From Ostreococcus lucimarinus (Eukaryota), in the NCBI GenBank assembly GCA_000092065.1, contig CP000591.1: a stretch of DNA of 64,000 nucleotides. One strand, given 5' to 3'. The notes under the pieces were generated by a model. That model searched no databases. It worked only from the letters and a program-made list of their open reading frames with translations, and was not told the DNA's origin. Below, one piece after another: positions 3,911 through 52,941 of this stretch (position 1 is its first letter; every line of letters begins with the position of its first letter). A program made the translations under genes and the position numbers.

Positions 3911-4984
3911 TTAATGCGTCGACGTCGTCAAGTATGCGAACAACAGCATGGGCGCGCCGAAGAGGCCGACCATGGTGAGCATCGCCTGCGTGTTCAGCGC
4001 CTTGACTTCTTCTTCGTCGATTTCGCCCGCAAACTTTTCGTTCGCCATCTTGATCAGGTACTCGTCGTACGCGTCTAGTTTTGCGGCGTCCATGTAATCG
4101 AATAAGTCCGATTTCATCTTCTTGGAAGCCGTCGTCATCCCCCAAATCATTCGATCCGCTTGCTTGGACACGTTTCCGTACTGGTTTCCGATGCACCGAC
4201 GATACTGCTTCAACGCCTCATCTCGGCGCTGCAAGTTGTCCAGACAGATGGCGTAGTTGAAGATTATCCTCCCGCCCATCTCCGTCTTTTGCCCGATGCG
4301 ATCGAGCGCCCACGGCTCGAGCAAATCGAGCGCGTCTTGCATGTATCCTCGCTTCATCGCCTCGCCCGAACGCTCCAAAACCTCCCGCACCTCCGCGTAC
4401 TCCGCGTTCGTCAGCGTCATCCCCTGATCCTCGCGATATTTCGCCAATTTCTTCGCCACTCTCGCCCTTCGCGCCGCGATCGCCTCCTCGTCCTCCAACT
4501 CCTCCCGTTTAACGGTTCGTCCGCCGCCGTACGTCTTCGATATATCCGGCGGTCGCTCGAACACCCCCCACGTGCTCACCGACGGTTTATACACCGCGTC
4601 CTCCACGTCGTACCCCACCGCCTTCTCGTCCGCGTCGAACGGGTCGTAATCCCGGTCCCGCGTCAAGATGCGCACCGTCACCTCCCGTTTGCGCGTCGCC
4701 CCCGTCGCGCCGTCGCTCGCCGTCTCGCTCGCGAACGTCCCGTCCGTCGTCGACGCCTCCATCGCGTCGTCCCGATCGCCTCCGTCGCCCTCCGCGCGCG
4801 CGCGCTCCATCGCCGCCGCGTACTCGCGCGCCTTTTTCACGCGATCCTCCACCGACGCGCGCAGATCGATCCTCGCGTCCGCGTCCTCGCGCGGCGCCGC
4901 GCGCGCGCGAGAGCGACGCCGTCGCGCGACGCGCGTCGGCGCCCGCGGCCGCGCGACGCGCGCGACGCGCGCCGCGCGCGCCAT
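3911..4984 (-). CDS. conserved hypothetical protein with C-terminal transmembrane anchor
   Basis: 357-aa ORF with ATG at 4984 (rc CAT 4982-4984). It has an acidic N-terminus, a helical middle region and a hydrophobic C-terminal helix 'MLTMVGLFGAPMLLFAYL'. No family recognised. Confidence 0.5.
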   Translation of the reverse strand: MARAARVARVARPRAPTRVARRRRSRARAAPREDADARIDLRASVEDRVKKAREYAAAMERARAEGDGGDRDDAMEASTTDGTFASETASDGATGATRKREVTVRILTRDRDYDPFDADEKAVGYDVEDAVYKPSVSTWGVFERPPDISKTYGGGRTVKREELEDEEAIAARRARVAKKLAKYREDQGMTLTNAEYAEVREVLERSGEAMKRGYMQDALDLLEPWALDRIGQKTEMGGRIIFNYAICLDNLQRRDEALKQYRRCIGNQYGNVSKQADRMIWGMTTASKKMKSDLFDYMDAAKLDAYDEYLIKMANEKFAGEIDEEEVKALNTQAMLTMVGLFGAPMLLFAYLTTSTH

Positions 4985-24811: not shown

Positions 24812-24869
24812 GAGCCCGCTCGTCGAGCGCCGGCTCGCTCGAGGTGTAAATTACAATTATAATACTTCT

Positions 24870-25973: not shown

Positions 25974-26217
25974 GTGCGTGACGACGACGACGCGCGCGCG
26001 CGACGACCGACCGACGCGACGCGCGCGACGACCGCGCGACGACCGAGGGCGCGGCGATCGAGGACGGCGGCGGCGGGCGAACGAATGCGCGACGAAATCG
26101 ACGTCGCCGAGCGCGGACGCGGCGATGAAACGCGCGGTGACCGAAGCGAACGCGCGCGATGTAAACGCGGCGCGACGCGCGAGCGCGGACTGACGAAGAG
26201 GCACGCGCGCGCGACAG
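25974..26217 (+). other. BRR2: spliceosomal intron (244 nt) of BRR2
   Basis: Donor GTGCGT at 25974 and acceptor cgacag| at 26217, phase 0. Splicing gives 'QYEYKA|NASLVLESDRRGRPRGEPTG'. Compare human '[29 protein letters not shown]'. Unspliced read-through ends in a 147-aa nonsense ORF. Confidence 0.8.
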
Positions 26218-29200
26218 AACGCGTCGTTGGTGCTGGAGAGCGATCGACGCGGGCGACCGCGGGGCGAACCCACGGGCGCGCCGGAGTCGCTCGAGGGAAA
26301 GATCGACGCGTCGCGGTTCGGAGATCGAGCGCGAGGCGGGACGGACGGTGATTTCGCGGAAAAACGGGAGCGAGCGGCGAGACGAAGGGCGGAAAAACGA
26401 GCGAGAGGGGACGCGGGGGAGGCGGAGGCGTTCGGGAAGCGCGGCCGAGCGACGAAGGGGGCGAGCGTTCTGGGAGGGAGTGAGTATGGGTTGTATAAAC
26501 CGAAGACGCGGGAAACGCGGGCGGCGTACGAGGGGTTGTTGAGCGTGTTGCAGGGAGTGTTCGGAGATCAACCGCAGGACGTCATGCGCGGCGCGGCGGA
26601 TGAGGTTTTGGCGGCGCTGAAGGAGGAGGGGAAGACGGAACGCGCGAAACAAAAGGACGTCGAGGCGTTGATGGGGACTTTAACTTCGGAGAGATTCGCG
26701 CAAATTACCGCCATCGGGAAGCTGATCACGGATTTCTCTATTCCAGGTGAAGGTGGCGAAGGCGCGGGCGAGGAGTTGGACGACGACATCGGCGTCGCCG
26801 TGGAGTTTGAAGAGGAAGAAGAGGAAGACTCGGACGTGGACGAGGTGTTAGAGGCGTCCGACGTAGACGACGACGACGAAGGCGACGAAGGCGCGTACGA
26901 CGGCGCCGTGGGCGCGAGAGCAGTCGAGGATGAGTACACGCCGAACGCGGACCACGGGTTGAATCCGGCGGACATCGACGCGCACTGGTTGCAGCGCGCC
27001 ATCTCGAAAGCGTTCGGGTTTACGGACTCTGACGCCGCGGAGAGCTTGAAGCTGTCCGAAGACGTATATCAGGTGTTGTCCACCGAAGATGACCGCGAGT
27101 GCGAAAATGCGCTCGTGTCAATGCTCGATTACGACAAGTTTGATTTGATCAAAGTGCTGTTGAAGAACCGACTCAAGGTGTTTTGGTGCACAAGACTCGC
27201 TCGATCCGCGAGCGAGGAAGAAACCGCGAACATCGAGGCGCAAATGAAAGCCGATCCGGCCGCTGCTGGGATTTTAGCGTCCATGCGCGCGACGCGCGCG
27301 TCCGCACGCGATCGACAGACGGCGACGGAGCAAAAGATTCGCGAAGAGGCTCGCAAGCTTCGCGGCGAAGTCGCGGAGATGCGAACTCAAGGCGGCGCCG
27401 CTGCGGCTGGACGTCAGCTTTTGGAGCTCGACGCGCTTGCCTTCGTGCAAGGTTCGCATTTTATGAGCAACAAGCGATGCGAGCTTCCGCCCGGTTCGTT
27501 TAGAAGCGCCAAAAAGGGTTACGAAGAAGTACACATACCGGCGCTCAAACAGCCACCGTTCAACGACGACGAAGCGCTCCGTGCGATTGAAGAAATGCCA
27601 GAGTGGGCGCAACCTGCGTTTGAGGGCATGAAGACGTTGAATCGCATTCAGAGTCGCGTGTACGAATGCGCATTGCTTTCGCCAGAGAACATGCTTCTCT
27701 GCGCGCCGACGGGCGCGGGTAAGACGAACTGTGCGATGTTGACTATTTTACATGAAGTTGGTCTTCACCGTCGTCGTGACGGGAGCGTCGATACGTCTGC
27801 GTTTAAGATCGTGTATGTTGCGCCGATGAAAGCTCTCGTCGCAGAAATTGTGGGCAACTTGAGTAATCGTTTGAAGACCTTTGGGATCCAAGTGCGAGAA
27901 TTGACGGGCGACGTTTCGCTGAGTAAGGCTGAAATTGAAGCCACGCAAATCATCGTTACCACGCCAGAAAAATGGGATATTATCACTCGAAAGTCTGGTG
28001 ATCGCGTGTACACGCAGCTCGTCAAGCTTATCATCATCGATGAAGTCCATCTCTTGCACGACGACCGCGGTCCCGTGCTCGAATCCATCATCGCGAGAAC
28101 GGTGCGACAAGTTGAGACGACGCAAGAAATGGTCCGTTTAGTCGGTCTTTCTGCAACGCTGCCAAACTTCGAGGACGTTGCGACGTTTATGCGAGTAAAC
28201 CCTGAGAAGGGGTTGCACGTTTTTGACAACTCGTACCGCCCGTGTCCTTTGCAGCAGCAATACATCGGCGTCACGGTGAAGAAGCCGTTGCAGCGAATGC
28301 AACTCATGAATGAAATTTGCTACGAAAAGGTGATGGAAAGTGCGGGCAAGAGTCAAGTACTCGTATTCGTACACAGTCGTAAGGATACGGCGAAAACCGC
28401 GAAAGCTCTTAGAGATTTGGCGATGGAGAACGAGACTCTAGGAAAGTTGATGCGTGACGATTCGGCGAGTCGTGAAATTTTACTCACCGAAGCCGAGACG
28501 GTGAAGAGCTCCGAGCTGCGTGATTTGCTCCCGTACGGGTTCGCCATACACCACGCCGGTATGAGTCGCGCTGATCGTACATTAGTAGAGGAGCTCTTCG
28601 GCGACGGTCACGTGCAAGTGCTCGTCTCCACGGCGACGCTCGCGTGGGGGGTCAACCTGCCCGCGCACACCGTGATCATCAAGGGCACGCAAGTGTACAA
28701 CCCCGAAAAGGGTGGTTGGGACGAGCTTAGTTTCCAAGACGTCATGCAAATGATGGGTCGTGCGGGTCGGCCGCAGTTTGACACGTTCGGCGAAGGTATC
28801 ATCATCACGCAACACTCCGAGTTGCAGTACTACCTGTCGCTGTTCAACCAACAGCTCCCCATCGAATCTCAATTCGTCAAGCAGCTCGCCGACGCTTTGA
28901 ACGCCGAAATTATTCTCGGTACGATTCAAAACGTTCGTGACGCGGTGATTTGGTTAGGGTACACGTATTTGTTTGTTCGCATGTTGCGAAACCCAACGTT
29001 GTATGGCGTGTCGGTGGATGCTGTCGAGGACGACCCCGTGCTCGAACAGCGAAGGTCAGATTTGATTCATACTGCTGCGGCGCAACTAGATAAGAGTGGC
29101 CTTATTCGCTACGATAGGCGAAGCGGTGCATTACAAGGCACTGACTTAGGTAGAATTGCTTCAACGTACTACGTCTCTCATGGCACGCTCATGGCATTCA

Positions 29201-32200
29201 ATCAACACTTGAAGCCTACGATGGGCGACATCGAGCTGTGTCGTCTATTCTCTCTCGCCGAGGAGTTCAAGTATATTAGTGTGCGGGAGGAAGAAAAGAT
29301 GGAGCTGTCAAAGCTCGCTGAGCGAGTGCCAATTCCAGTGAAAGAGTCGATCGAGGAACCGACGGCGAAGATAAACATTCTTCTCCAGGCGTACATCAGT
29401 AACATGCGCCTCGATGGGTTTGCGCTCATGTCCGACATGGTTTACGTGACGCAGAGCGCAGGTCGCATCTTGCGTTGTATTTTCGAAATCGTACTCAAGA
29501 AGGGTTGGTCGCAACTCGCTGAGAAGTCATTGGCGCTGTGTAAGATGTGTGCTCGCAGAACGTGGGCTTCACAAACGCCGCTGCGTCAGTTCTCCGCTAT
29601 ACCTGTGGACGTCTTGCAAAAGATTGAACGAAAAGATTTAGCGTGGGATAGGTATTACGACTTAAGTAGTCAAGAAATTGGCGAGCTTATGCGAGCGCCA
29701 AAGCTCAGTAAGGCTTTGCATAGATTCATTCATCAGGTTCCTCGATTAGAGCTCTCGGCGCACGTGCAGCCGATCACGCGAAGCGTGCTCAAGGTGGATT
29801 TGAACATCCAACCGGACTTCATTTGGGACGAATCTGTACATGGGTACGTCCAGGGCTTCTGGATCATTGTGGAAGATAACGATGGCGAAAATATCTTACA
29901 TCACGAGTACTTCTTACTCAAGGGGCATAACGCGGAAGAAGAGCACGGAGTGTCATTCACGGTGCCTTTGTCCGATCCACTGCCACCGCAGTATTTCATT
30001 CGCGTCGTCAGCGACAATTGGTTGGGAAGCGACACGGTGATTCCGGTTTCGTTCAAGCACTTGATGTTACCCGAGAAGAATCCACCGCCAACGGAGCTTC
30101 TGGACTTGCAGCCCTTACTCGTGAGCACTCTCAAAGCAGATGGCTACGACGAGCTTTACGCCGGTCGGTTCACGCACTTTAACCCGATTCAAACCCAAGT
30201 CTTCCAATGCCTGTACAACACAGATGAAAACGCCCTCGTTGGTGCACCGACGGGGAGCGGGAAGACGGTATGCGCGGAGTTTGCGATCATGCGATCACTT
30301 ATGACGAATCAGGATGGACGTTCCGTGTACATGGCGCCGACGGCGACGCTTGCTGATGAACGATACGACGACTGGAGCTCGAGATTTGGGGCGCTTGGCG
30401 TCTCCGTCACCAAGCTCACGGGTGATACGACGGCGGATCTGAAATTGTTAGAAAAGGGACAAATCGTCATCACCACACCGCAACAGTGGGACGTCATAAG
30501 TCGTCGATGGAAACAGCGAAAGAACGTACAAACGGTGTCGCTGTTTATTGCGGATGAACTTCAGCTCATAGGCGGTTCCAACGGTCCGACGATCGAAGTC
30601 GTCGTCTCGCGTATGCGTTACATGTCGAGTCAACTGGCGAAACCTGTCAGAGTGTTGGGTTTGTGTACCTCGTTAGCAAACGCTCGCGACTTGGGCGAAT
30701 GGATCGGTGCGAGTTCTCACGGCACGTTCAACTTTTCTCCGGGCGTTCGCCCAGTGCCACTCGAGATCCACTTCCAAGGCGTAGATATCATCAACTTTGA
30801 GGCGCGAATGCAGGCCATGGCGAGACCAGTGTATGGGGCGATTGCGAATCATTGTCGTCGATCGGAGCCGTCGATTGTCTTCGTGCCTACGCGTAAGCAC
30901 GCGAAGTTGGCGTCTCTCGACTTGCTCGCGTTTGCCGCTGCGGAGGGCGAGCCGGGTCGGTTCTTACAAGTTGAAGAAGGTGATCTCGAGCCTTACTTGG
31001 CGCAAATATCTGATGAGTCTGTACGCCATGCCCTGACGTTTGGCGTCGCGCTTATTCACGAAGCCATGAGCGAAAAGGAGCGAAAGGTTGTCGAACGAGT
31101 GTTCGCCGTCGGTGCGGCGTCTGTGCTCGTCGCCACTGCGCCCCTGGCTTGGGGACTCACGACTCCCTGCAAGCTCGTGGTCATCATGGGGACGCAGTAC
31201 TACGACGCCGGGGGTGCTGGTGCGGCGGATTATCCAGTGACGGATCTTCTTCAAATGATGGGCCGTGCATCCAGACCTGGCATCGACGATGCCGGTGTGT
31301 GTTTACTCTTGTGTCACGCGCCGAGGAAGGAATACTACAAGAAGTTCCTCTTCGAACCGTTCCCTGTCGAGTCGCACCTCGATCACTTCTTGCACGATCC
31401 CATGGTGGCTGAAATTGTCACGCGCACGATCGAAACGAAGCAAGACGCCGTGGACTACATCACGTGGAGCTTCTACTACAGGCGACTGACGCAGAACCCG
31501 AACTACTACAATCTCACCGGCGTTTCGCACCGCCATCTTTCCGACGCTCTTTCCGAGCTCGTCGAAACGACTTTGGGTGACTTGGAGGCGAGCAAATGTA
31601 TCAGCATCGAGGACGATATGGATTGCGCTCCACTGAACCTCGGGATGATTTCCGCGTACTACTACATCACGTACACGACGATTGAACTCTTCGCCGCTTC
31701 GCTCACGGCGAAGACCAAACTGAAGGGTTTACTTGAAATCGTTGCCGGTGCGACTGAATTCGAGTCCTTTGCCGTCAGACCGGGCGAGGCAGATATGCTT
31801 CGACGCATACTCAACCACGCGCCGATCACGTTATCAAGCAATAAAACCACGGATCCGCATGTCAAGGTCGCCGCTCTTCTCCAGGCATACTTTGGCCGAA
31901 CGAGCATTCACGGCGACTTTACGCAAGACTTGCAAAAGATTTTGCCCGACGCAACGCGCCTGCTCCAAGCTATGGTCGATGTCATCTCATCTAACGGATG
32001 GCTCGGCCCCGCGCTCGCCGCGATGGAGCTTTCGCAAATGATGGTGCAAGGCATGTGGGACAAAGACCCAGCAGTGATGCAGTTGCCGCACATCGACCAA
32101 GAGACCGGCGAGCGATGTGTCACGGCTGGCATCGAGGGTGTCTACGACTTGATCGATATGGAAGATGACGCGAGGCGCGATATTTTACAACTCAGCGATG

Positions 32201-32625
32201 AGCAGCTCGAAGACGTGGCGGAAGCAGCGAATCGTTACCCGAGCATTGAAGTAGCATTCGACGTCACTGACCCCGACGACGTCACCGCGGGCGACGCAGT
32301 GGAGATCGTCGTCAACCTCGAGCGCGAGATCGAGGGCGAAATCGGTCCAGTTTTTGCGCCGCGATATCCAGGGCGAAAGGAAGAAGCTTGGTGGCTCGTC
32401 GTCGGTGACGTGAGAAAAGGCACCTTGCACGCTATTAAGCGCATCACGCTCGGCAAGAGGCAAAAAGTCAAGCTCGAGTTCGCGGCGCCGGAACAAGTGG
32501 GCAAGGCGGACTTGACTTTGTACTTTATGTGCGATTCCTACCTCGGATGTGATCAGGAGTACGAATTTACCCTCGACGTCAAGGAGGGAGAGGACGAGAG
32601 CGATGACGACGCGATGAAACCGTGA
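26218..32625 (+). CDS. BRR2: U5 snRNP 200 kDa helicase BRR2, exon 2 (two Ski2-like helicase + Sec63 cassettes)
   Basis: It aligns with BRR2 along its whole length: 'YKPKTRETRAAYEGLL', 'CAPTGAGKTN', 'DEVHLLHDDRGPVLE', the second cassette 'GAPTGSGKT' and the C-terminal Sec63 region. Confidence 0.92.
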   Translation, partial: NASLVLESDRRGRPRGEPTGAPESLEGKIDASRFGDRARGGTDGDFAEKRERAARRRAEKRARGDAGEAEAFGKRGRATKGASVLGGSEYGLYKPKTRETRAAYEGLLSVLQGVFGDQPQDVMRGAADEVLAALKEEGKTERAKQKDVEALMGTLTSERFAQITAIGKLITDFSIPGEGGEGAGEELDDDIGVAVEFEEEEEEDSDVDEVLEASDVDDDDEGDEGAYDGAVGARAVEDEYTPNADHGLNPADIDAHWLQRAISKAFGFTDSDAAESLKLSEDVYQVLSTEDDRECENALVSMLDYDKFDLIKVLLKNRLKVFWCTRLARSASEEETANIEAQMKADPAAAGILASMRATRASARDRQTATEQKIREEARKLRGEVAEMRTQGGAAAAGRQLLELDALAFVQGSHFMSNKRCELPPGSFRSAKKGYEEVHIPALKQPPFNDDEALRAIEEMPEWAQPAFEGMKTLNRIQSRVYECALLSPENMLLCAPTGAGKTNCAMLTILHEVGLHRRRDGSVDTSAFKIVYVAPMKALVAEIVGNLSNRLKTFGIQVRELTGDVSLSKAEIEATQIIVTTPEKWDIITRKSGDRVYTQLVKLIIIDEVHLLHDDRGPVLESIIARTVRQVETTQEMVRLVGLSATLPNFEDVATFMRVNPEKGLHVFDNSYRPCPLQQQYIGVTVKKPLQRMQLMNEICYEKVMESAGKSQVLVFVHSRKDTAKTAKALRDLAMENETLGKLMRDDSASREILLTEAETVKSSELRDLLPYGFAIHHAGMSRADRTLVEELFGDGHVQVLVSTATLAWGVNLPAHTVIIKGTQVYNPEKGGWDELSFQDVMQMMGRAGRPQFDTFGEGIIITQHSELQYYLSLFNQQLPIESQFVKQLADALNAEIILGTIQNVRDAVIWLGYTYLFVRMLRNPTLYGVSVDAVEDDPVLEQRRSDLIHTAAAQLDKSGLIRYDRRSGALQGTDLGRIASTYYVSHGTLMAFNQHLKPTMGDIELCRLFSLAEEFKYISVREEEKMELSKLAERVPIPVKESIEEPTAKINILLQAYISNMRLDGFALMSDMVYVTQSAGRILRCIFEIVLKKGWSQLAEKSLALCKMCARRTWASQTPLRQFSAIPVDVLQKIERKDLAWDRYYDLSSQEIGELMRAPKLSKALHRFIHQVPRLELSAHVQPITRSVLKVDLNIQPDFIWDESVHGYVQGFWIIVEDNDGENILHHEYFLLKGHNAEEEHGVSFTVPLSDPLPPQYFIRVVSDNWLGSDTVIPVSFKHLMLPEKNPPPTELLDLQPLLVSTLKADGYDELYAGRFTHFNPIQTQVFQCLYNTDENALVGAPTGSGKTVCAEFAIMRSLMTNQDGRSVYMAPTATLADERYDDWSSRFGALGVSVTKLTGDTTADLKLLEKGQIVITTPQQWDVISRRWKQRKNVQTVSLFIADELQLIGGSNGPTIEVVVSRMRYMSSQLAKPVRVLGLCTSLANARDLGEWIGASSHGTFNFSPGVRPVPLEIHFQGVDIINFEARMQAMARPVYGAIANHCRRSEPSIVFVPTRKHAKLASLDLLAFAAAEGEPGRFLQVEEGDLEPYLAQISDESVRHALTFGVALIHEAMSEKERKVVERVFAVGAASVLVATAPLAWGLTTPCKLVVIMGTQYYDAGGAGAADYPVTDLLQMMGRASRPGIDDAGVCLLLCHAPRKEYYKKFLFEPFPVESHLDHFLHDPMVAEIVTRTIETKQDAVDYITWSFYYRRLTQNPNYYNLTGVSHRHLSDALSELVETTLGDLEASKCISIEDDMDCAPLNLGMISAYYYITYTTIELFAASLTAKTKLKGLLEIVAGATEFESFAVRPGEADMLRRILNHAPITLSSNKTTDPHVKVAALLQAYFGRTSIHGDFTQDLQKILPDATRLLQAMVDVISSNGWLGPALAAMELSQMMVQGMWDKDPAVMQLPHIDQETGERCVTAGIEGVYDLIDMEDDARRDILQLSDEQLEDVAEAANRYPSIEVAFDVTDPDDVTAGDAVEIVVNLEREIEGEIGPVFAPRYPGRKEEAWWLVVGDVRKGTLHAIKRITLGKRQKVKLEFAAPEQVGKADLTLYFMCDSYLGCDQEYEFTLDVKEGEDESDDDAMKP

Positions 32626-36134: not shown

Positions 36135-36178
36135 AATCTAACAATCTACAGTAGCGTTACAAGTGCGTGTAATCACGA

Positions 36179-46998: not shown

Positions 46999-49900
46999 AT
47001 GCCCGCGCCGGGCGCGGAGGGGACGGAGCGCGCGTGCGGCGCGTCCGGACGCGCGCTGCGCGACCGCGCGACGCTGAAACACACGAGCAGACAGCAGGAA
47101 ATCATCTTGCAATCGATTCGAGCCACCGAACAGACGATCGGCGCGATCAAACGCGCGTCGCTGAGCGAAGAGATCGAAAGAAGGCGCGAGACGGCGCTTG
47201 GAATCGTGCGTGATATCGATGCGGCGTGGAAGGCGATGCCGGCGGTGCCCGAACGCGGCGCGGGGGCGGCGAGGGAGTGCTTTTTGCAGTGCGACGCCGC
47301 GGGCTGCGGCAAGTGGCGGCGAGCGCCGCGCGCGATGGGCGACGCGCTCGCGGGCGACGCGAAGTTTTACTGCAAAGACGGCCGAGACGGGAGATTTAAT
47401 CGATGCGAGATGGCGCAGGAGGTCGGCGACGATGAGGTGGATAGCATTTTGGATGAGAGCGTCGCGGCGGACGCGGAGGCGCGGGAGAGGTGCAAGCGGG
47501 ACATCTCGAACGAGCGAGGGAGGATGTATCAGAAACGGAAGAGGTTGTTGGAGTTGGAGCGAAGGCACGATATTGGAGAGATCGAACTTCAGGAGGACGG
47601 GACGTACGTGACGCTGGCGAAGCGGGGGAAGAATGGAAAGAATGGGAAGCGTCACGGGAATAACGGCGTCGGCGGACTCGGTTCAAAGGCGCCGCCGCAT
47701 CCTGGTCCGTTCGATGAGTTCGCGTGGGTGCAGTGCGAAGCGGAGGGGTGTGGGAAGTGGCGTAAGGTGAAGCATGCAGCGGTAGAGGGGATGTCGGTGC
47801 GAGATCGTTGGGTGTGCTGCATGAACGAAGACAAGGAGCATTCGACGTGCAAAACGCCTCAGGAGATGAGCGACGAAGACGTTGACAAGTTTAAAGTCGA
47901 TCAAGAGAGGCGAATGATTTTGCACCAGAAGCAATTACAAGAGCACTATGCGCACTTCGCACCGCGAGGGGCGAAGTTGCCCGAAGGTTTGATTCGCGTC
48001 ACGGTGCCGGTGCAGGACACAACGCCGCCCGAGGCGGAGCCGCCCGCCGCGGTACCAGTCGCGGCGCCGGCGCCAGGAACCGCCGAGACCACTAGAATAT
48101 CGATCGACGATGGACCGGAAGACTCGCCCATGTGGGTACCCGGGATACCGCGTCCGATGGCGCCGCTTGTGACGCCGAACACCATTCCTGTGCAAGTGGC
48201 TGTTTCGTGCAACGGGCACGCGGGAGTCTACCTTCCGCGTCGGAACCTGTTTAGATGCCACTGCGAGCAACCAGAACACATGTGTGCGTCGGTGAGCGGC
48301 GATGGTGACGGTCGTTTATTCGGGGGATCAGTTTGGGAGGCGCACTGCGGTAAGGCATCGACGAGAAAGTATAAAGCGTCCGTCAAGGTTCATATGAATG
48401 GGCCGAATCCGCAAATGTTCATTGGCCGCTGGTTCGATCGTGTCGGCTTGAAAGTCGCCGACGCGAAAGGCGGCGGTGGTGGAGGCAAACCGAAGAAGCC
48501 AAAGGTGAAGAGTTTCATTATGGAGCTCGAAGAGGCGATCCTTCCTGGACCGATTAACCAACTGTCGCTTCGTAATTTGATGACCATTTTCGGTTTCATT
48601 TTGGACGGCAGCGCCGTCGGCGAAGTTAAAGTCAAGACTGAAGGTGAGGAAAAGGAAAAGCCGAAGGCTTTGACCGCGAATGAGCGACGTGAAGAAGGTG
48701 CAAAAGAACTCGGGCGATTCGCATCGGTATGTAAGGCGTGGAAGCAGGCGTCGTTGACAGTGTTGAAGACGGCGGGCGTAGCCAAGGCGGAGAAGAAGAA
48801 TTTTGACGGGACCGCGCTGCGAACGCAGTTTACCGTGATTACAGAGTACGTCGACCGCAAAGATGAGAAGGAGTGCCAAATAGAACGCTCAGTGACGCTC
48901 GCGGCTAATCACCCTTTCGACAAAAAGTCAAAGATGAAGACGGCGCACGTCGACGACGGAACCCCTCCCGGGTGGTGGCCGTCGCTCGGTGTCAAGGCGG
49001 AACGTAAAAAGCTCGTCACAGAAGTCATCGAGCAAGAAACCTACGGTGTTGATTTCGTTACCGGTCGCGACGCAACAGAAACACTCAAGCGCGTGCTGCC
49101 CGATTACTCTGAAGACGATGTATGGGGACTTTACAAGCAACTTCTCGCGCAAGTGAACGAAAGCTACGGAGCGATGACTCCCGATACTTTGGCGACGCAA
49201 AACTTGGCGGTTGCCGCTGAAGATCTCGCGGTAAAGCTTGAACGTAAGGCGGACGCTAAGAGTTTAGCGTTTTCAAAGGCTTTATGGAAACTCGCTGCGG
49301 CGGCGATCGAGACGCCAGAATATTATTACGTGCACAGAAAAGGATTTGGCGTCGTGTGCAACCAACCGATTAAAAAGGGTGAGTTTCTCATCGACTTTCT
49401 TGGTGAGATCTATCCACCCTGGGCGTGGGCCGAGAAGCAAGATGCCATCCGTCAGGTGCAAAAGGCACGCGGCCTTCGCGATCGCGGCCCTCCGGAGTTT
49501 TACAACATGCAAATCGAGCGCCCGGGAGGCGACGCAGAGGGTTACTCGGTGCTCTTTTGCGACGCGATGCACGAGAACAACTATGCCGGGCGGCTTTCGC
49601 ACACCTGTGATCCAAACGTCGAAGTCAACTTGAAGGCCATTAATGGCAAGTATGAGATTCATTTCATCACAACTCGAGACATTGCACCTGGCGAAGAGTT
49701 AGCGTACAACTATCACAGCTGTACGGATAACATGAAGGAGGTCGAGATGGCGTTTTGCTTGTGTGGCGCTCGCATGTGTCGAGGTTCGTATTTGAACTTT
49801 GTTGGCGAAGACCACCACTCGCAAGTTTTGGAGAGCAAGCATAAGCTTATCGATCGACAAGTGATGTCGTTCAAGGCGATCGATAAGGCGGCGGATCCGC

Positions 49901-51084
49901 TAACTTCGAAACAAGAGCGATCTCTGGCGGCGGTCGGATTCTATCCTGGGAAAGGTTTACTCAGAAACTGCCCGGGATGGTTGCTTCAGTTTGTGGGTGA
50001 TGTAGCGGTGTACATGGATACCGAGCTCAACGAACTTCCCAAGCACATCCTCGCGGCGGCGAAGAAAGAGCATGCAAAGCTGTTGGAGAAGAACCCGCAA
50101 GCTGAGTTTTCTTACACCGAAAAGTTTGCCAAGATTGATGCGCTTGCGATGCGGGAAAACCGAACGCAGTGCGTCGCCATCATGCTGAGTAAATTGCGTC
50201 GACTTTTGACGCGGGCGCGCGATGATGGTCCGCAGAAAAGCGTGTACGAGTGCATGGATGTGTTTGAAAAGTCCGCACCACCGTACGTTACGCTCACCGA
50301 AGCCGAGATCGCCGCGCATTTTTGGGGGTCTGGTCCGGAGAATTTCGAAAAGTCCATCGTCTGTGGTCTCATTCGCGCCATGGGCCCGCACGAGCGCAAA
50401 AACGACGCGGATAAGTTCATCAAGTGGACTAGTATGGTGGAAAGTGTCGCCGTGGAAGTCCGCAAAGGCAAGATGACGCGTAAAGAGTCATTACTTTGGC
50501 TTCGTGATGAACTAAAAAAGCTCAAGCAAACCGATGGCGCGCGCCACGACCTCGCTGCGGGACTTATTCACTTATACGCCGAGACCAATCGGTTCTGGCA
50601 GCCCTCTTCGGCACCAGAGCATCAAGTTTATAAGAGTGACAAGGTCGCGGTGCGCGAAGACGAAGTCAACGCGTGGGGCGTTGGTGCGGGTGGCGGTGGC
50701 GATAAAATCGTCGCCAGAGTGGAGAAAACGTATCGCCCGGGATTTTCTGCGGCGACGATGCTGCAGTGGCACAAGCAAGAGATGGCCGACCCGACGCAGT
50801 ACATCACCGCGAATCGTAGGGGTAACTTGAGCATGCCAGATATCGCGTGCTGTTATTCCAGTCGTCCCGGACAGCCTCTCGCGAGGTCGAGTGATCGCGA
50901 GCATGAAACCTGGCTGGCGCACTTGCAGAGCTGGCCCGAGGAGCCATGGCCGCAATCAAGCGGGCCGTGGGGGGTCGCAAACTCGCAAAAACTGATCGGT
51001 TCGCCGGTTTTAGATGCTTGGATGAAGGGCCAGCGATCGATTCCGGCTAAATGCTTGGCGTGGTTGAAAACGAACACGGGCTAA
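46999..51084 (+). CDS. SET-domain histone-lysine N-methyltransferase with two CW-type zinc fingers
   Basis: CW fingers 'CFLQCDAAGCGKWRRAP' and 'WVQCEAEGCGKWRKV...WVCCMN'. SET 'GFGVVCNQPIKKGEFLIDFLGEIY...NYAGRLSHTCDPN...GEELAYNY'. Post-SET 'CLCGARMCRGSY'. ATG at 46999. Confidence 0.8.
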   Translation: MPAPGAEGTERACGASGRALRDRATLKHTSRQQEIILQSIRATEQTIGAIKRASLSEEIERRRETALGIVRDIDAAWKAMPAVPERGAGAARECFLQCDAAGCGKWRRAPRAMGDALAGDAKFYCKDGRDGRFNRCEMAQEVGDDEVDSILDESVAADAEARERCKRDISNERGRMYQKRKRLLELERRHDIGEIELQEDGTYVTLAKRGKNGKNGKRHGNNGVGGLGSKAPPHPGPFDEFAWVQCEAEGCGKWRKVKHAAVEGMSVRDRWVCCMNEDKEHSTCKTPQEMSDEDVDKFKVDQERRMILHQKQLQEHYAHFAPRGAKLPEGLIRVTVPVQDTTPPEAEPPAAVPVAAPAPGTAETTRISIDDGPEDSPMWVPGIPRPMAPLVTPNTIPVQVAVSCNGHAGVYLPRRNLFRCHCEQPEHMCASVSGDGDGRLFGGSVWEAHCGKASTRKYKASVKVHMNGPNPQMFIGRWFDRVGLKVADAKGGGGGGKPKKPKVKSFIMELEEAILPGPINQLSLRNLMTIFGFILDGSAVGEVKVKTEGEEKEKPKALTANERREEGAKELGRFASVCKAWKQASLTVLKTAGVAKAEKKNFDGTALRTQFTVITEYVDRKDEKECQIERSVTLAANHPFDKKSKMKTAHVDDGTPPGWWPSLGVKAERKKLVTEVIEQETYGVDFVTGRDATETLKRVLPDYSEDDVWGLYKQLLAQVNESYGAMTPDTLATQNLAVAAEDLAVKLERKADAKSLAFSKALWKLAAAAIETPEYYYVHRKGFGVVCNQPIKKGEFLIDFLGEIYPPWAWAEKQDAIRQVQKARGLRDRGPPEFYNMQIERPGGDAEGYSVLFCDAMHENNYAGRLSHTCDPNVEVNLKAINGKYEIHFITTRDIAPGEELAYNYHSCTDNMKEVEMAFCLCGARMCRGSYLNFVGEDHHSQVLESKHKLIDRQVMSFKAIDKAADPLTSKQERSLAAVGFYPGKGLLRNCPGWLLQFVGDVAVYMDTELNELPKHILAAAKKEHAKLLEKNPQAEFSYTEKFAKIDALAMRENRTQCVAIMLSKLRRLLTRARDDGPQKSVYECMDVFEKSAPPYVTLTEAEIAAHFWGSGPENFEKSIVCGLIRAMGPHERKNDADKFIKWTSMVESVAVEVRKGKMTRKESLLWLRDELKKLKQTDGARHDLAAGLIHLYAETNRFWQPSSAPEHQVYKSDKVAVREDEVNAWGVGAGGGGDKIVARVEKTYRPGFSAATMLQWHKQEMADPTQYITANRRGNLSMPDIACCYSSRPGQPLARSSDREHETWLAHLQSWPEEPWPQSSGPWGVANSQKLIGSPVLDAWMKGQRSIPAKCLAWLKTNTG

Positions 51085-51126
51085 GCGATAAGCATGAGCT
51101 TACAACTTCTTTCGTCGTCGATTTTG
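51085..51126. repeat. 42-bp direct repeat, copy 1 (intergenic, immediately after the SET gene stop)
   Basis: GCGATAAGCATGAGCTTACAACTTCTTTCGTCGTCGATTTTG. It is identical to 51215-51256 except for one base. On the minus strand it reads ...IDDERSCKLMLIA then stop. Confidence 0.8.
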
Positions 51127-51168
51127 CCTAGAATTCTTTGTAATATTTCACACGACTACTCGCCAATT

Positions 51169-52512
51169 CTAACACTGCTGCTGCTCGCGCTCGCGCGCGA
51201 GTTTCACCGTTAACGCGATAAGCATGAGCTTACAACTTCGTTCGTCGTCGATTTTGGCGTACTCCACAAAATCATTCGCCTTGGGCAACGCGCCGTTGAG
51301 CATGACGTGATCGTCGAAGAACAATGTCAGGTGCTCGGGAATACACAACAACTTGAAATAGAATGCGCAACCCTTGCGCATCGCGGATAATAACGTCGAA
51401 AATACGACGATCCTGTCTGTATCCGTGGTCGTCGCGATGTCGTCCAATGACGCGCCCGCTATGTGCTTCGCGTACACCTCGCGTTCGGTATCCGTGAGCT
51501 CTATTTCGCCCGCGCGCGCGCTTTGAGCGGATAACTCGCCTTTATCGACAGCATCGTCAAAGACGACATCGGTCGGCTCTTCGTCGTCTTCTTCGTCGTC
51601 GACGAACGCGTTCGCCTCGTCTTCGTCCTCGTCCTCGTCCTCGTCCTCGTCTTCAACTTCCTCGTCCGACGACTCGACGGGTTCGGGCAGCGGATCGCAC
51701 TCGTACGGCTCACCCCCGAACGATTCCACCACGTCTCGTTTCATCAGCGCGCGATACACTAGCAGCGACGCCCACGCATCCATGGCGGCGTACTTGATCT
51801 GACTCTCATTCAACTCTTCGCGCTCCCAATTCGACATTCGCGTCTTGTCCTTGGGCAACGTCTTCCCGAGCACGTGTTCGCACAACCTCGCCAACGACCA
51901 CGACGGCGCGCTCGGACACCCACCCTCGAACCGTTCTTTCGCCAAAACGCTCAACTCGATCACCCTCGACGGTTCTAACCCATAATCCCGCACCAACTTT
52001 CTCGCGTCGCCCCTGACGTTGAAGCCCGTCTTCCCCCGCGCGCCGTCTCGCGTCCATCGTTTGAATCGCCGCGTCAACCCCGCGGTGTGAATCCGCGCCA
52101 GCACCACCAATTTTTCGCTCAAATCCTCGTTCGCCACCGCGATCTGCACCAGCGACGTCTTGCTCTCCCCCGCGCCCCGCTTAAACGACACCTTCCACTC
52201 CATGTCGAATCCGCAGTGCTTCGTCGTCGCCGTCGTCCCCGCGCGCGCGTCGAACGCCTCGATCCGCGCCATCGCCTCCTCCAGCTCCCTCGCCGTGCTC
52301 GCGACGACGATCTCCCCATCGTACGTCAGATCGTCCATCGTCGTCGCCCTCGCCCGCGCCGCGCCCGCGCCCGCGCCCGCGCCGTCGCGCGCGTTTTCCT
52401 TCGCCTCTGCGTCGCCCGCCGTCGCGTCGTCCGTTCCCGCCGCCGCTTTCGCGCGTTTCGACGCGTCGCGCGCGCCGTCCGTCGCGCGCGCTCGACGTTT
52501 CGTCGGCGTCAT
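51169..52512 (-). CDS. DEDDy-type 3'-5' exonuclease domain protein (WRN-exo/Mut-7-like) with acidic linker and C-terminal helical domain
   Basis: Exo motifs 'GFDMEW', 'NVRGDARKL' and 'YAAMDAWASLLVY' (Y-x3-D). First ATG at 52512; the upstream M of the listed ORF is a GTG. Confidence 0.7.
   Translation of the reverse strand: MTPTKRRARATDGARDASKRAKAAAGTDDATAGDAEAKENARDGAGAGAGAARARATTMDDLTYDGEIVVASTARELEEAMARIEAFDARAGTTATTKHCGFDMEWKVSFKRGAGESKTSLVQIAVANEDLSEKLVVLARIHTAGLTRRFKRWTRDGARGKTGFNVRGDARKLVRDYGLEPSRVIELSVLAKERFEGGCPSAPSWSLARLCEHVLGKTLPKDKTRMSNWEREELNESQIKYAAMDAWASLLVYRALMKRDVVESFGGEPYECDPLPEPVESSDEEVEDEDEDEDEDEDEANAFVDDEEDDEEPTDVVFDDAVDKGELSAQSARAGEIELTDTEREVYAKHIAGASLDDIATTTDTDRIVVFSTLLSAMRKGCAFYFKLLCIPEHLTLFFDDHVMLNGALPKANDFVEYAKIDDERSCKLMLIALTVKLAREREQQQC
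51215..51256. repeat. 42-bp direct repeat, copy 2 (inside the C-terminal codons of the exonuclease gene)
   Basis: GCGATAAGCATGAGCTTACAACTTCGTTCGTCGTCGATTTTG. It encodes ...DDERSCKLMLIA of the exonuclease on the minus strand. Confidence 0.8.
51617..51653. repeat. coding hexamer tract (GTCCTC/GTCTTC)n encoding the Asp/Glu run of the exonuclease
   Basis: Read directly from the sequence. Confidence 0.6.
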
Positions 52513-52578
52513 CGTCGCGCGTCGCGCGTCGCCGTCCGTCGCGCGTCGCCGTCCGTCGTTCGCTTTCGCTCGAATCGC

Positions 52579-52614
52579 GTCTCGGCCGTCTCGGCCGTCT
52601 CGGCCGTCTCGGAC
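52579..52614. repeat. 9-bp tandem repeat (GTCTCGGCC)x3 plus GTCTCGGAC in the divergent promoter/5' region
   Basis: Read directly from the sequence. A second block (GTCTCGGAC)x3 lies at 52774-52800. Confidence 0.6.
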
Positions 52615-52773
52615 GCCGCGATCGCGCGTCGCACCGCGCCGCGCCGCTTTCGCGCCGCGATGGCGCGCGTCGCGACGACGCCGCGCGCGATCGCGCGCGC
52701 GTCGTCCGTCGCGCGCGTCGATCGCGCGCGTCCGCGTCGGCGTCGGCGACGCGCGACGCGATCGCGCGCGCGC

Positions 52774-52800
52774 GTCTCGGACGTCTCGGACGTCTCGGAC
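52774..52800. repeat. 9-bp tandem repeat (GTCTCGGAC)x3
   Basis: Read directly from the sequence. It lies between the divergent exonuclease and VWA genes. Confidence 0.6.
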
Positions 52801-52941
52801 GACGACGACGACGCCGTCGCGGCGCACGCGCTCGTCGAGCGGCGATCGCTGCTCGACAGCGACGACGCCGAGGCGGACGCGCGTCGGCGCGCGCTCGCCA
52901 ACGCGCGCGCGATCGCGGCGACGGCGGACGGCGGCGACGTC

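Follow-up and report, generated by a model that had tools for sequence, protein, structure and literature searches.

A recent lineage-specific insertion between two convergent genes of Ostreococcus lucimarinus, probably a local templated copy of nearby exonuclease coding sequence

Results

A direct repeat beside two convergent stop codons

The window, by which we mean the whole 64-kb stretch of Ostreococcus lucimarinus DNA analysed here, is GC-rich and very compact; its ~34 long open reading frames (ORFs) are separated by spacers that measure only tens of bases. On the minus strand, positions 51169-52512 encode a WRN-like 3'-5' exonuclease of 447 amino acids (PF01612), whose nearest named relative is the 'Werner syndrome-like exonuclease' of O. 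tauri (60% identity) and whose ORF ends with TAG at 51169-51171. The gene that converges on it from the plus strand, at 46999-51084, encodes an SDG2-type SET-domain methyltransferase (zf-CW, SET and SDG2_C, from Pfam hits on orthologues); its start is putatively placed at 46999, where the ORF has its first ATG, and its stop is TAA at 51082-51084. The gene order VWA, exonuclease and convergent SET gene is kept in every lineage examined. The two stop codons enclose a spacer of 84 nt (51085-51168), one base less than the 85 bp given in the initial annotation of the locus. The exonuclease gene and its upstream sequence also contain acidic (Asp/Glu) and Arg/Ala-rich low-complexity tracts (51579-51660 and 52340-52830), which carry many indels of 6-45-nt repeat units relative to the sister lineage described below.

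A direct repeat links the spacer to the exonuclease coding sequence. Copy 1 (51085-51126) lies in the spacer and abuts the SET stop, while copy 2 (51215-51256) lies inside the exonuclease gene, 15 to 28 residues from the C-terminus of the protein. The copies have the same orientation, start 130 nt apart and are identical at 41 of 42 positions, in agreement with the 42-bp direct repeat with one differing base that had been annotated. Read on the plus strand, both sites consist of GCGATAAGCATGAGCTTACAACTTC, a single variable base and TTCGTCGTCGATTTTG, the sole mismatch being T in copy 1 (51110) and G in copy 2 (51240). When up to 3 mismatches were allowed, a search picked out these two sites alone in 64 kb, and 100 dinucleotide-preserving shuffles gave no match. 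In a scan of the whole window this was the only high-identity local direct repeat other than those in GC-rich low-complexity coding sequence. Each copy includes a small palindrome, TAAGC-TCAT-GCTTA (51090-51103 and 51220-51233), which appears as a 5-6-bp hairpin in folds. RNA folding gave no structure signal for either 51070-51260 on the minus strand (z = -0.33) or 51070-51200 on the plus strand (z = +0.80).

The repeat is a copy of an internal piece of coding sequence, since the exonuclease ORF continues beyond it. On the minus strand copy 2 encodes KIDDERSCKLMLIA in the exonuclease frame, and 14 further codons (LTVKLAREREQQQC) lead to the TAG. Copy 2 had been described as the C-terminal peptide and the last codons of the exonuclease; the frame and the peptide were correctly identified, but they are not the end of the protein. 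The tail beyond them is conserved across Ostreococcus, with the motif L-x-A-L-x-x-K-x-A-R-[DE]-[RQ]-E present in 8 of 8 aligned Ostreococcus-type homologues and its K, A, R and E invariant. Nor was a stop codon duplicated, as had been proposed, for there is none inside the repeat. Copy 1 encodes the same peptide on the minus strand and, as annotated, runs directly into a TAG (51081-51083) that overlaps the SET TAA; this TAG belongs to the older flanking sequence around the SET stop and is present in relatives that have no copy 1. The pentamer TGTAA also occurs on the minus strand in both copies, where it had been noted before: at 51230-51234 in copy 2, where it forms Cys-Lys codons ~60 nt upstream of the exonuclease stop, and at 51100-51104 in copy 1, where it becomes a candidate poly(A) signal (discussed below).

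The insertion is derived and specific to one lineage

The orthologous locus was compared among relatives, as the initial annotation had suggested, and the insertion proved to be lineage specific. The copy 1 site is empty in L001, L002 and L013 (~96% nucleotide identity in the SET coding sequence), the sister lineage of the window, and also in L003 and L004; spacers without copy 1 are about 37-47 nt long, against 84 nt in the window. BLAST alignments of the three sister sequences with the window break exactly at 51084/51126, and MAFFT places a 38-nt gap at the copy 1 site. The 41 nt from 51085 to 51125 are missing in the sister lineage, which holds GTT in their place, and the last base of copy 1, 51126, is found there at the empty site as well. 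We conclude from the alignment break and the gap that the window lineage acquired 41 nt, with GTT lost. In the exonuclease sense, the window spacer consists of the stop TAG, AATTGGCGAGTAGTCGTGTGAAATATTACAAAGAATTCTAGGC, the insert (AAAATCG...CTTATCGC) and TTAGCCC. The corresponding sequence in L001 (protein 96% identical) is TAG, AATTGGCAAGGAGTTGTGTGAAATATTACAAAGAATTTTAGGC, GTT and TTAGCCGG; in L003 (86%) it is ...ATTACAAAGAATT followed by TTAGCCGG, and in L004 (65%) ...ATTACAAAGAATTCAAGAACCAAT followed by TCAAGAACCCG. Over 5.6 kb compared with L001, the copy 1 insert is the sole insertion of more than 6 nt in the window.

The bases of the two copies point to the same direction of change. Copy 2 is present in L001 and L003, each with its own substitutions, and copy 1 has AGT, as does copy 2 of the window; the corresponding bases are AAA in L001 and AGC in L003. 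The T at 51110 is derived and the ancestral base is G, because G is found in copy 2, in L001 and in L003. We take it as shown that the insertion is local, derived and recent, and that the sampled population is fixed for it. The earlier suggestion of a recent micro-duplication is borne out by the empty site in the sister and two further lineages, together with the window-lineage-specific bases of copy 1. The suggestion of a conserved 3' regulatory element was rejected: copy 1 is missing from all other lineages examined, six in number.

Could copy 1 instead be ancestral and have been deleted independently elsewhere, or be what is left of a full 130-bp tandem duplication that lost its 88-nt part? 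The empty site of L001, TAGGC GTT TTAGCC, could be derived from a 45-nt version of the insert by deletion between two GC dinucleotides, and small tandem duplications are known at the copy 1 spot. Ancestry would, however, demand at least three independent precise deletions (in the L001 group, L003 and L004) in place of one insertion. Moreover, the two copies have a window-specific base in common and differ at 1 of 42 positions, as compared to ~4 of 42 between the spacers of the window and L001. A tandem remnant fits poorly too, as copy 1 gives way to conserved SET coding sequence, with nothing like the 88-nt segment beside it. We therefore regard these histories as very unlikely relative to a single insertion in the window lineage.

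Independent assemblies carry the same two copies

An assembly artefact, or a dispersed element unrelated to this gene, would have undermined the interpretation of the repeat. We scanned a metagenome collection with an 18-mer core of the repeat (GATAAGCATGAGCTTACA) and obtained 18 loci. Three of these match the window over 3-14 kb, with identities of 99.7% (L010), 98.7% (L015) and 99.6% (L018). A further sequence, L005, was fetched separately and is 100% identical to the window over 428 nt; as these are 428 of its 1049 nt, L005 was used only for the two-copy structure. It is a low-coverage ENA contig that matches window positions 51054-51481, while its remaining part (1-621) is unrelated sequence with a fused gene call (P0015), so it is probably chimeric. 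In all four, both copies lie 130 nt apart within a region identical to the window and differ by the same T/G substitution. These four contigs were assembled independently from different samples and have an identical arrangement, which excludes an assembly artefact.

A dispersed family finds equally little in its favor. There are just two copies in the 64-kb window and, apart from L013, which is the single-copy sister lineage, all other 18-mer matches in the metagenome collection have unrelated flanks and are chance matches. The probability that the repeat is an artefact or a member of a dispersed family is, in our view, close to nil.

Another reading, also raised initially, is that copy 1 is an alternative 3' terminal exon. 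In this case the interval between the copies would contain a 106-nt intron, with a donor GTAAGC (from 51233 downwards) and an acceptor AG at 51128-51129, and copy 1 would be an in-frame terminal exon ending in ...KIDDERSCKIDDERSCKLMLIA and a stop. The GT...AG boundaries are indeed present, and the spliced frame would enter the copy 1 peptide and its TAG. In the intron-poor bulk of Ostreococcus genomes, however, introns carry strict GTGCGTG and GACTGACG signals with the branch point (G)ACTGAC(G) (PMC2483917). The candidate has GTAAGC rather than GTGCGTG as its donor, and no CTRAY or ACTGAC branch point is found within its 106 nt. Splicing would also delete the C-terminal LTVKLARERE, with its invariant K, A, R and E, and thereby the conserved C-terminal helix, and the 'exon' is missing in all relatives. 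On these splice signals and this protein conservation we rejected the alternative exon, which we judge extremely improbable. An interval with the strict arrangement GTGCGTG...GACTGACG...AG does occur elsewhere in the window, at 25974-26200 on the plus strand, upstream of a 2013-aa ORF (26584-32625), and may be a real intron there.

A narrow slot beside a conserved poly(A)-signal block

Between the two copies lie 88 nt of unique, unduplicated sequence that hold the end of the exonuclease coding sequence and a conserved spacer block, AGAATTCTTTGTAATATTTCACACG (51130-51154). The block is kept in L001, L003 and L004. Its conservation thus spans four lineages with 65-96% protein identity. On the plus strand it contains TGTAA (51139-51143), which is likely the poly(A) signal of the SET gene, and on the minus strand two variants, TGTGA and TGAAA, which likely made up the ancestral signal of the exonuclease gene. 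Having such motifs on both strands, the block is likely a shared two-way 3'-end signal. It nearly fills the ancestral spacer, and copy 1 occupies a slot flanked by the SET stop on one side and the block on the other, the only part of the 46-nt spacer that is free of both the stop codons and the conserved poly(A)-signal block.

This slot has also received other duplications. L004 has a perfect 12-bp tandem duplication at 4353-4376, two units of AATTCAAGAACC in the exonuclease sense, which includes the SET stop and arose independently at the copy 1 spot. An imperfect 9-bp duplication (TTTAGGCGT and TTTAGCCGG) lies beside the SET stop in L001 (~2720-2737) and in the window (51127-51131 plus 51079-51084); it is common to these two and not found in L003, and therefore predates the 41-nt insertion. 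Since small duplications arise independently in this slot, the simplest reading is that it is one of the few places in which indels are tolerated. We infer that the 41-nt insertion itself has most likely been neutral, although its fixation in all five close sequences would also fit a benefit.

The copied UGUAA as a candidate poly(A) signal

In O. lucimarinus, UGUAA has been reported as the near-upstream poly(A) signal and is present in 30.4% of genes; its variants include UGUGA and UGAAA (PMC6413133). In the window, TGTAA is present in 10 of 34 sense 3' flanks, as compared to 5 occurrences in 55 kb of sense coding sequence. The proportion of flanks agrees with the published 30.4% for this species. 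Two other convergent pairs, with spacers at 24812-24869 (58 nt) and 36135-36178 (44 nt), have TGTAA on both strands. The insertion alters these distances at the locus: it lengthens the interval from the SET stop to the conserved downstream UGUAA of that gene from 16 to 54 nt (+38 nt), and it puts a canonical UGUAA in the exonuclease sense 64 nt downstream of that gene's stop. The sister lineages, with spacers of 46-47 nt, have no sense TGTAA there.

The copied pentamer might have been co-opted, in line with the alternative poly(A) site that had been suggested initially, and now serve the exonuclease mRNA as its main distal poly(A) signal or as an alternative one, replacing or supplementing the weak UGUGA and UGAAA. 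Co-option concerns function and is compatible with an origin by templated insertion. In its favor are the use of UGUAA by 30.4% of O. lucimarinus genes, the enrichment of TGTAA in 3' flanks of the window over coding sequence, its placement on both strands in other convergent pairs, the absence of a sense TGTAA downstream of the stop in sister spacers and the presence of the insertion in all five close sequences. Several points weigh against it. At copy 2 the same TGTAA, with 22 identical nt before it and 15 after it, is part of the coding sequence, where its use would yield mRNAs that have no stop codon, so this context may not make an efficient signal. In addition, the ten flanking cases lie within 0-64 nt of the stop, so that the 64 nt of copy 1 is the largest distance among them, and ~70% of genes manage without UGUAA. 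Judging from these motif counts and distances, we consider co-option rather unlikely.

Discussion

Taken as a whole, the evidence makes it quite probable that copy 1 is a recent, lineage-specific and local templated insertion, produced by break repair or by a replication template switch and most likely neutral. That the event belongs to the class of local templated insertions is well supported, and a near-identical template lies 130 nt away in the same genome. In the process that we propose, 41 nt of exonuclease coding sequence would have been copied over a distance of 130 bp, in the same orientation, into the spacer beside the SET stop, with GTT lost at the insertion site, so that the locus grew by 38 nt. 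Most likely the nearby DNA served as template during error-prone break repair or a template switch in replication, giving an insertion of the direct-repeat class. Templated insertions from flanking DNA are a known outcome of repair across eukaryotes, among them animals, plants and the green alga Chlamydomonas, and those made by polymerase theta are typically 3-30 bp (or 2-35 bp) long (PMC8495919, PMC7454005); the insert described here, at 41 nt, exceeds this range.

The junctions, too, match this class imperfectly. On the upstream side the microhomology is 1 nt (C), and on the other side there is no exact microhomology. Matches there are offset: a TTA match, corresponding to the SET stop read in reverse, is obtained only when one extra G beyond the template is skipped, and a GCGTT match only if the copy is taken to have been 3 nt longer and to have lost GTT later. 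In the template the copied segment is followed by GTT, exactly the bases missing at the empty site, and it is conceivable that the original copy ran through GCGTT, with priming by 5 nt of microhomology and a later loss of 3 nt. An intermediate allele on this path would read ...CTTATCGCGTTTTAGCC, with 45 nt of identity; none was seen among the sequences compared.

Copy 1 is a new instance of an ordinary type of mutation and of low importance in itself. It does offer a clean, datable case of how a small insertion originates in a genome that ranks among the most compact of eukaryotes, and it reveals a zone of tolerance made up of the handful of bases that separate a stop codon from the poly(A)-signal block of two convergent genes. 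It could also serve as a lineage marker by which two close Ostreococcus populations are told apart in metagenomes. Should the copied UGUAA be in use, the locus would in addition be a minor case of a poly(A) signal gained by local duplication. The repair scar would then have moved Cys-Lys codons that happen to spell UGUAA into the 3' flank of their own gene, creating a new exonuclease signal and altering the 3' overlap of the convergent pair; we hold this to be doubtful on the present motif comparison, but if true, it would be a small, datable 3'-end signal born of coding DNA in an extremely compact genome.

With respect to known systems, the pentamer in copy 1 resembles the chlorophyte UGUAA signal of Chlamydomonas and Ostreococcus lucimarinus in being the exact motif, on the sense strand and after the stop codon, but it is not conserved in relatives, and the same motif in the same context occurs in coding sequence. 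Tandem duplication by replication slippage is likewise short, local and found in non-coding DNA, and a true tandem exists at the same spot in L004. The two copies of the present repeat are, in contrast, non-adjacent; with the same orientation and 88 nt of unique sequence between them, they are not head to tail, and a simple tandem duplication was therefore rejected. The sequence pattern of copy 1 also recalls the insertions of the 'nearby' or direct-repeat class made by polymerase-theta end joining, a candidate process here. Copy 1 differs from them in its length (41 nt, as opposed to the usual 3-35 bp) and in the weak or offset microhomology at its junctions, while it shares with them a template in cis in the flanking DNA, direct orientation, a distance of ~100 bp, a small deletion at the insertion site and one base that departs from the template.
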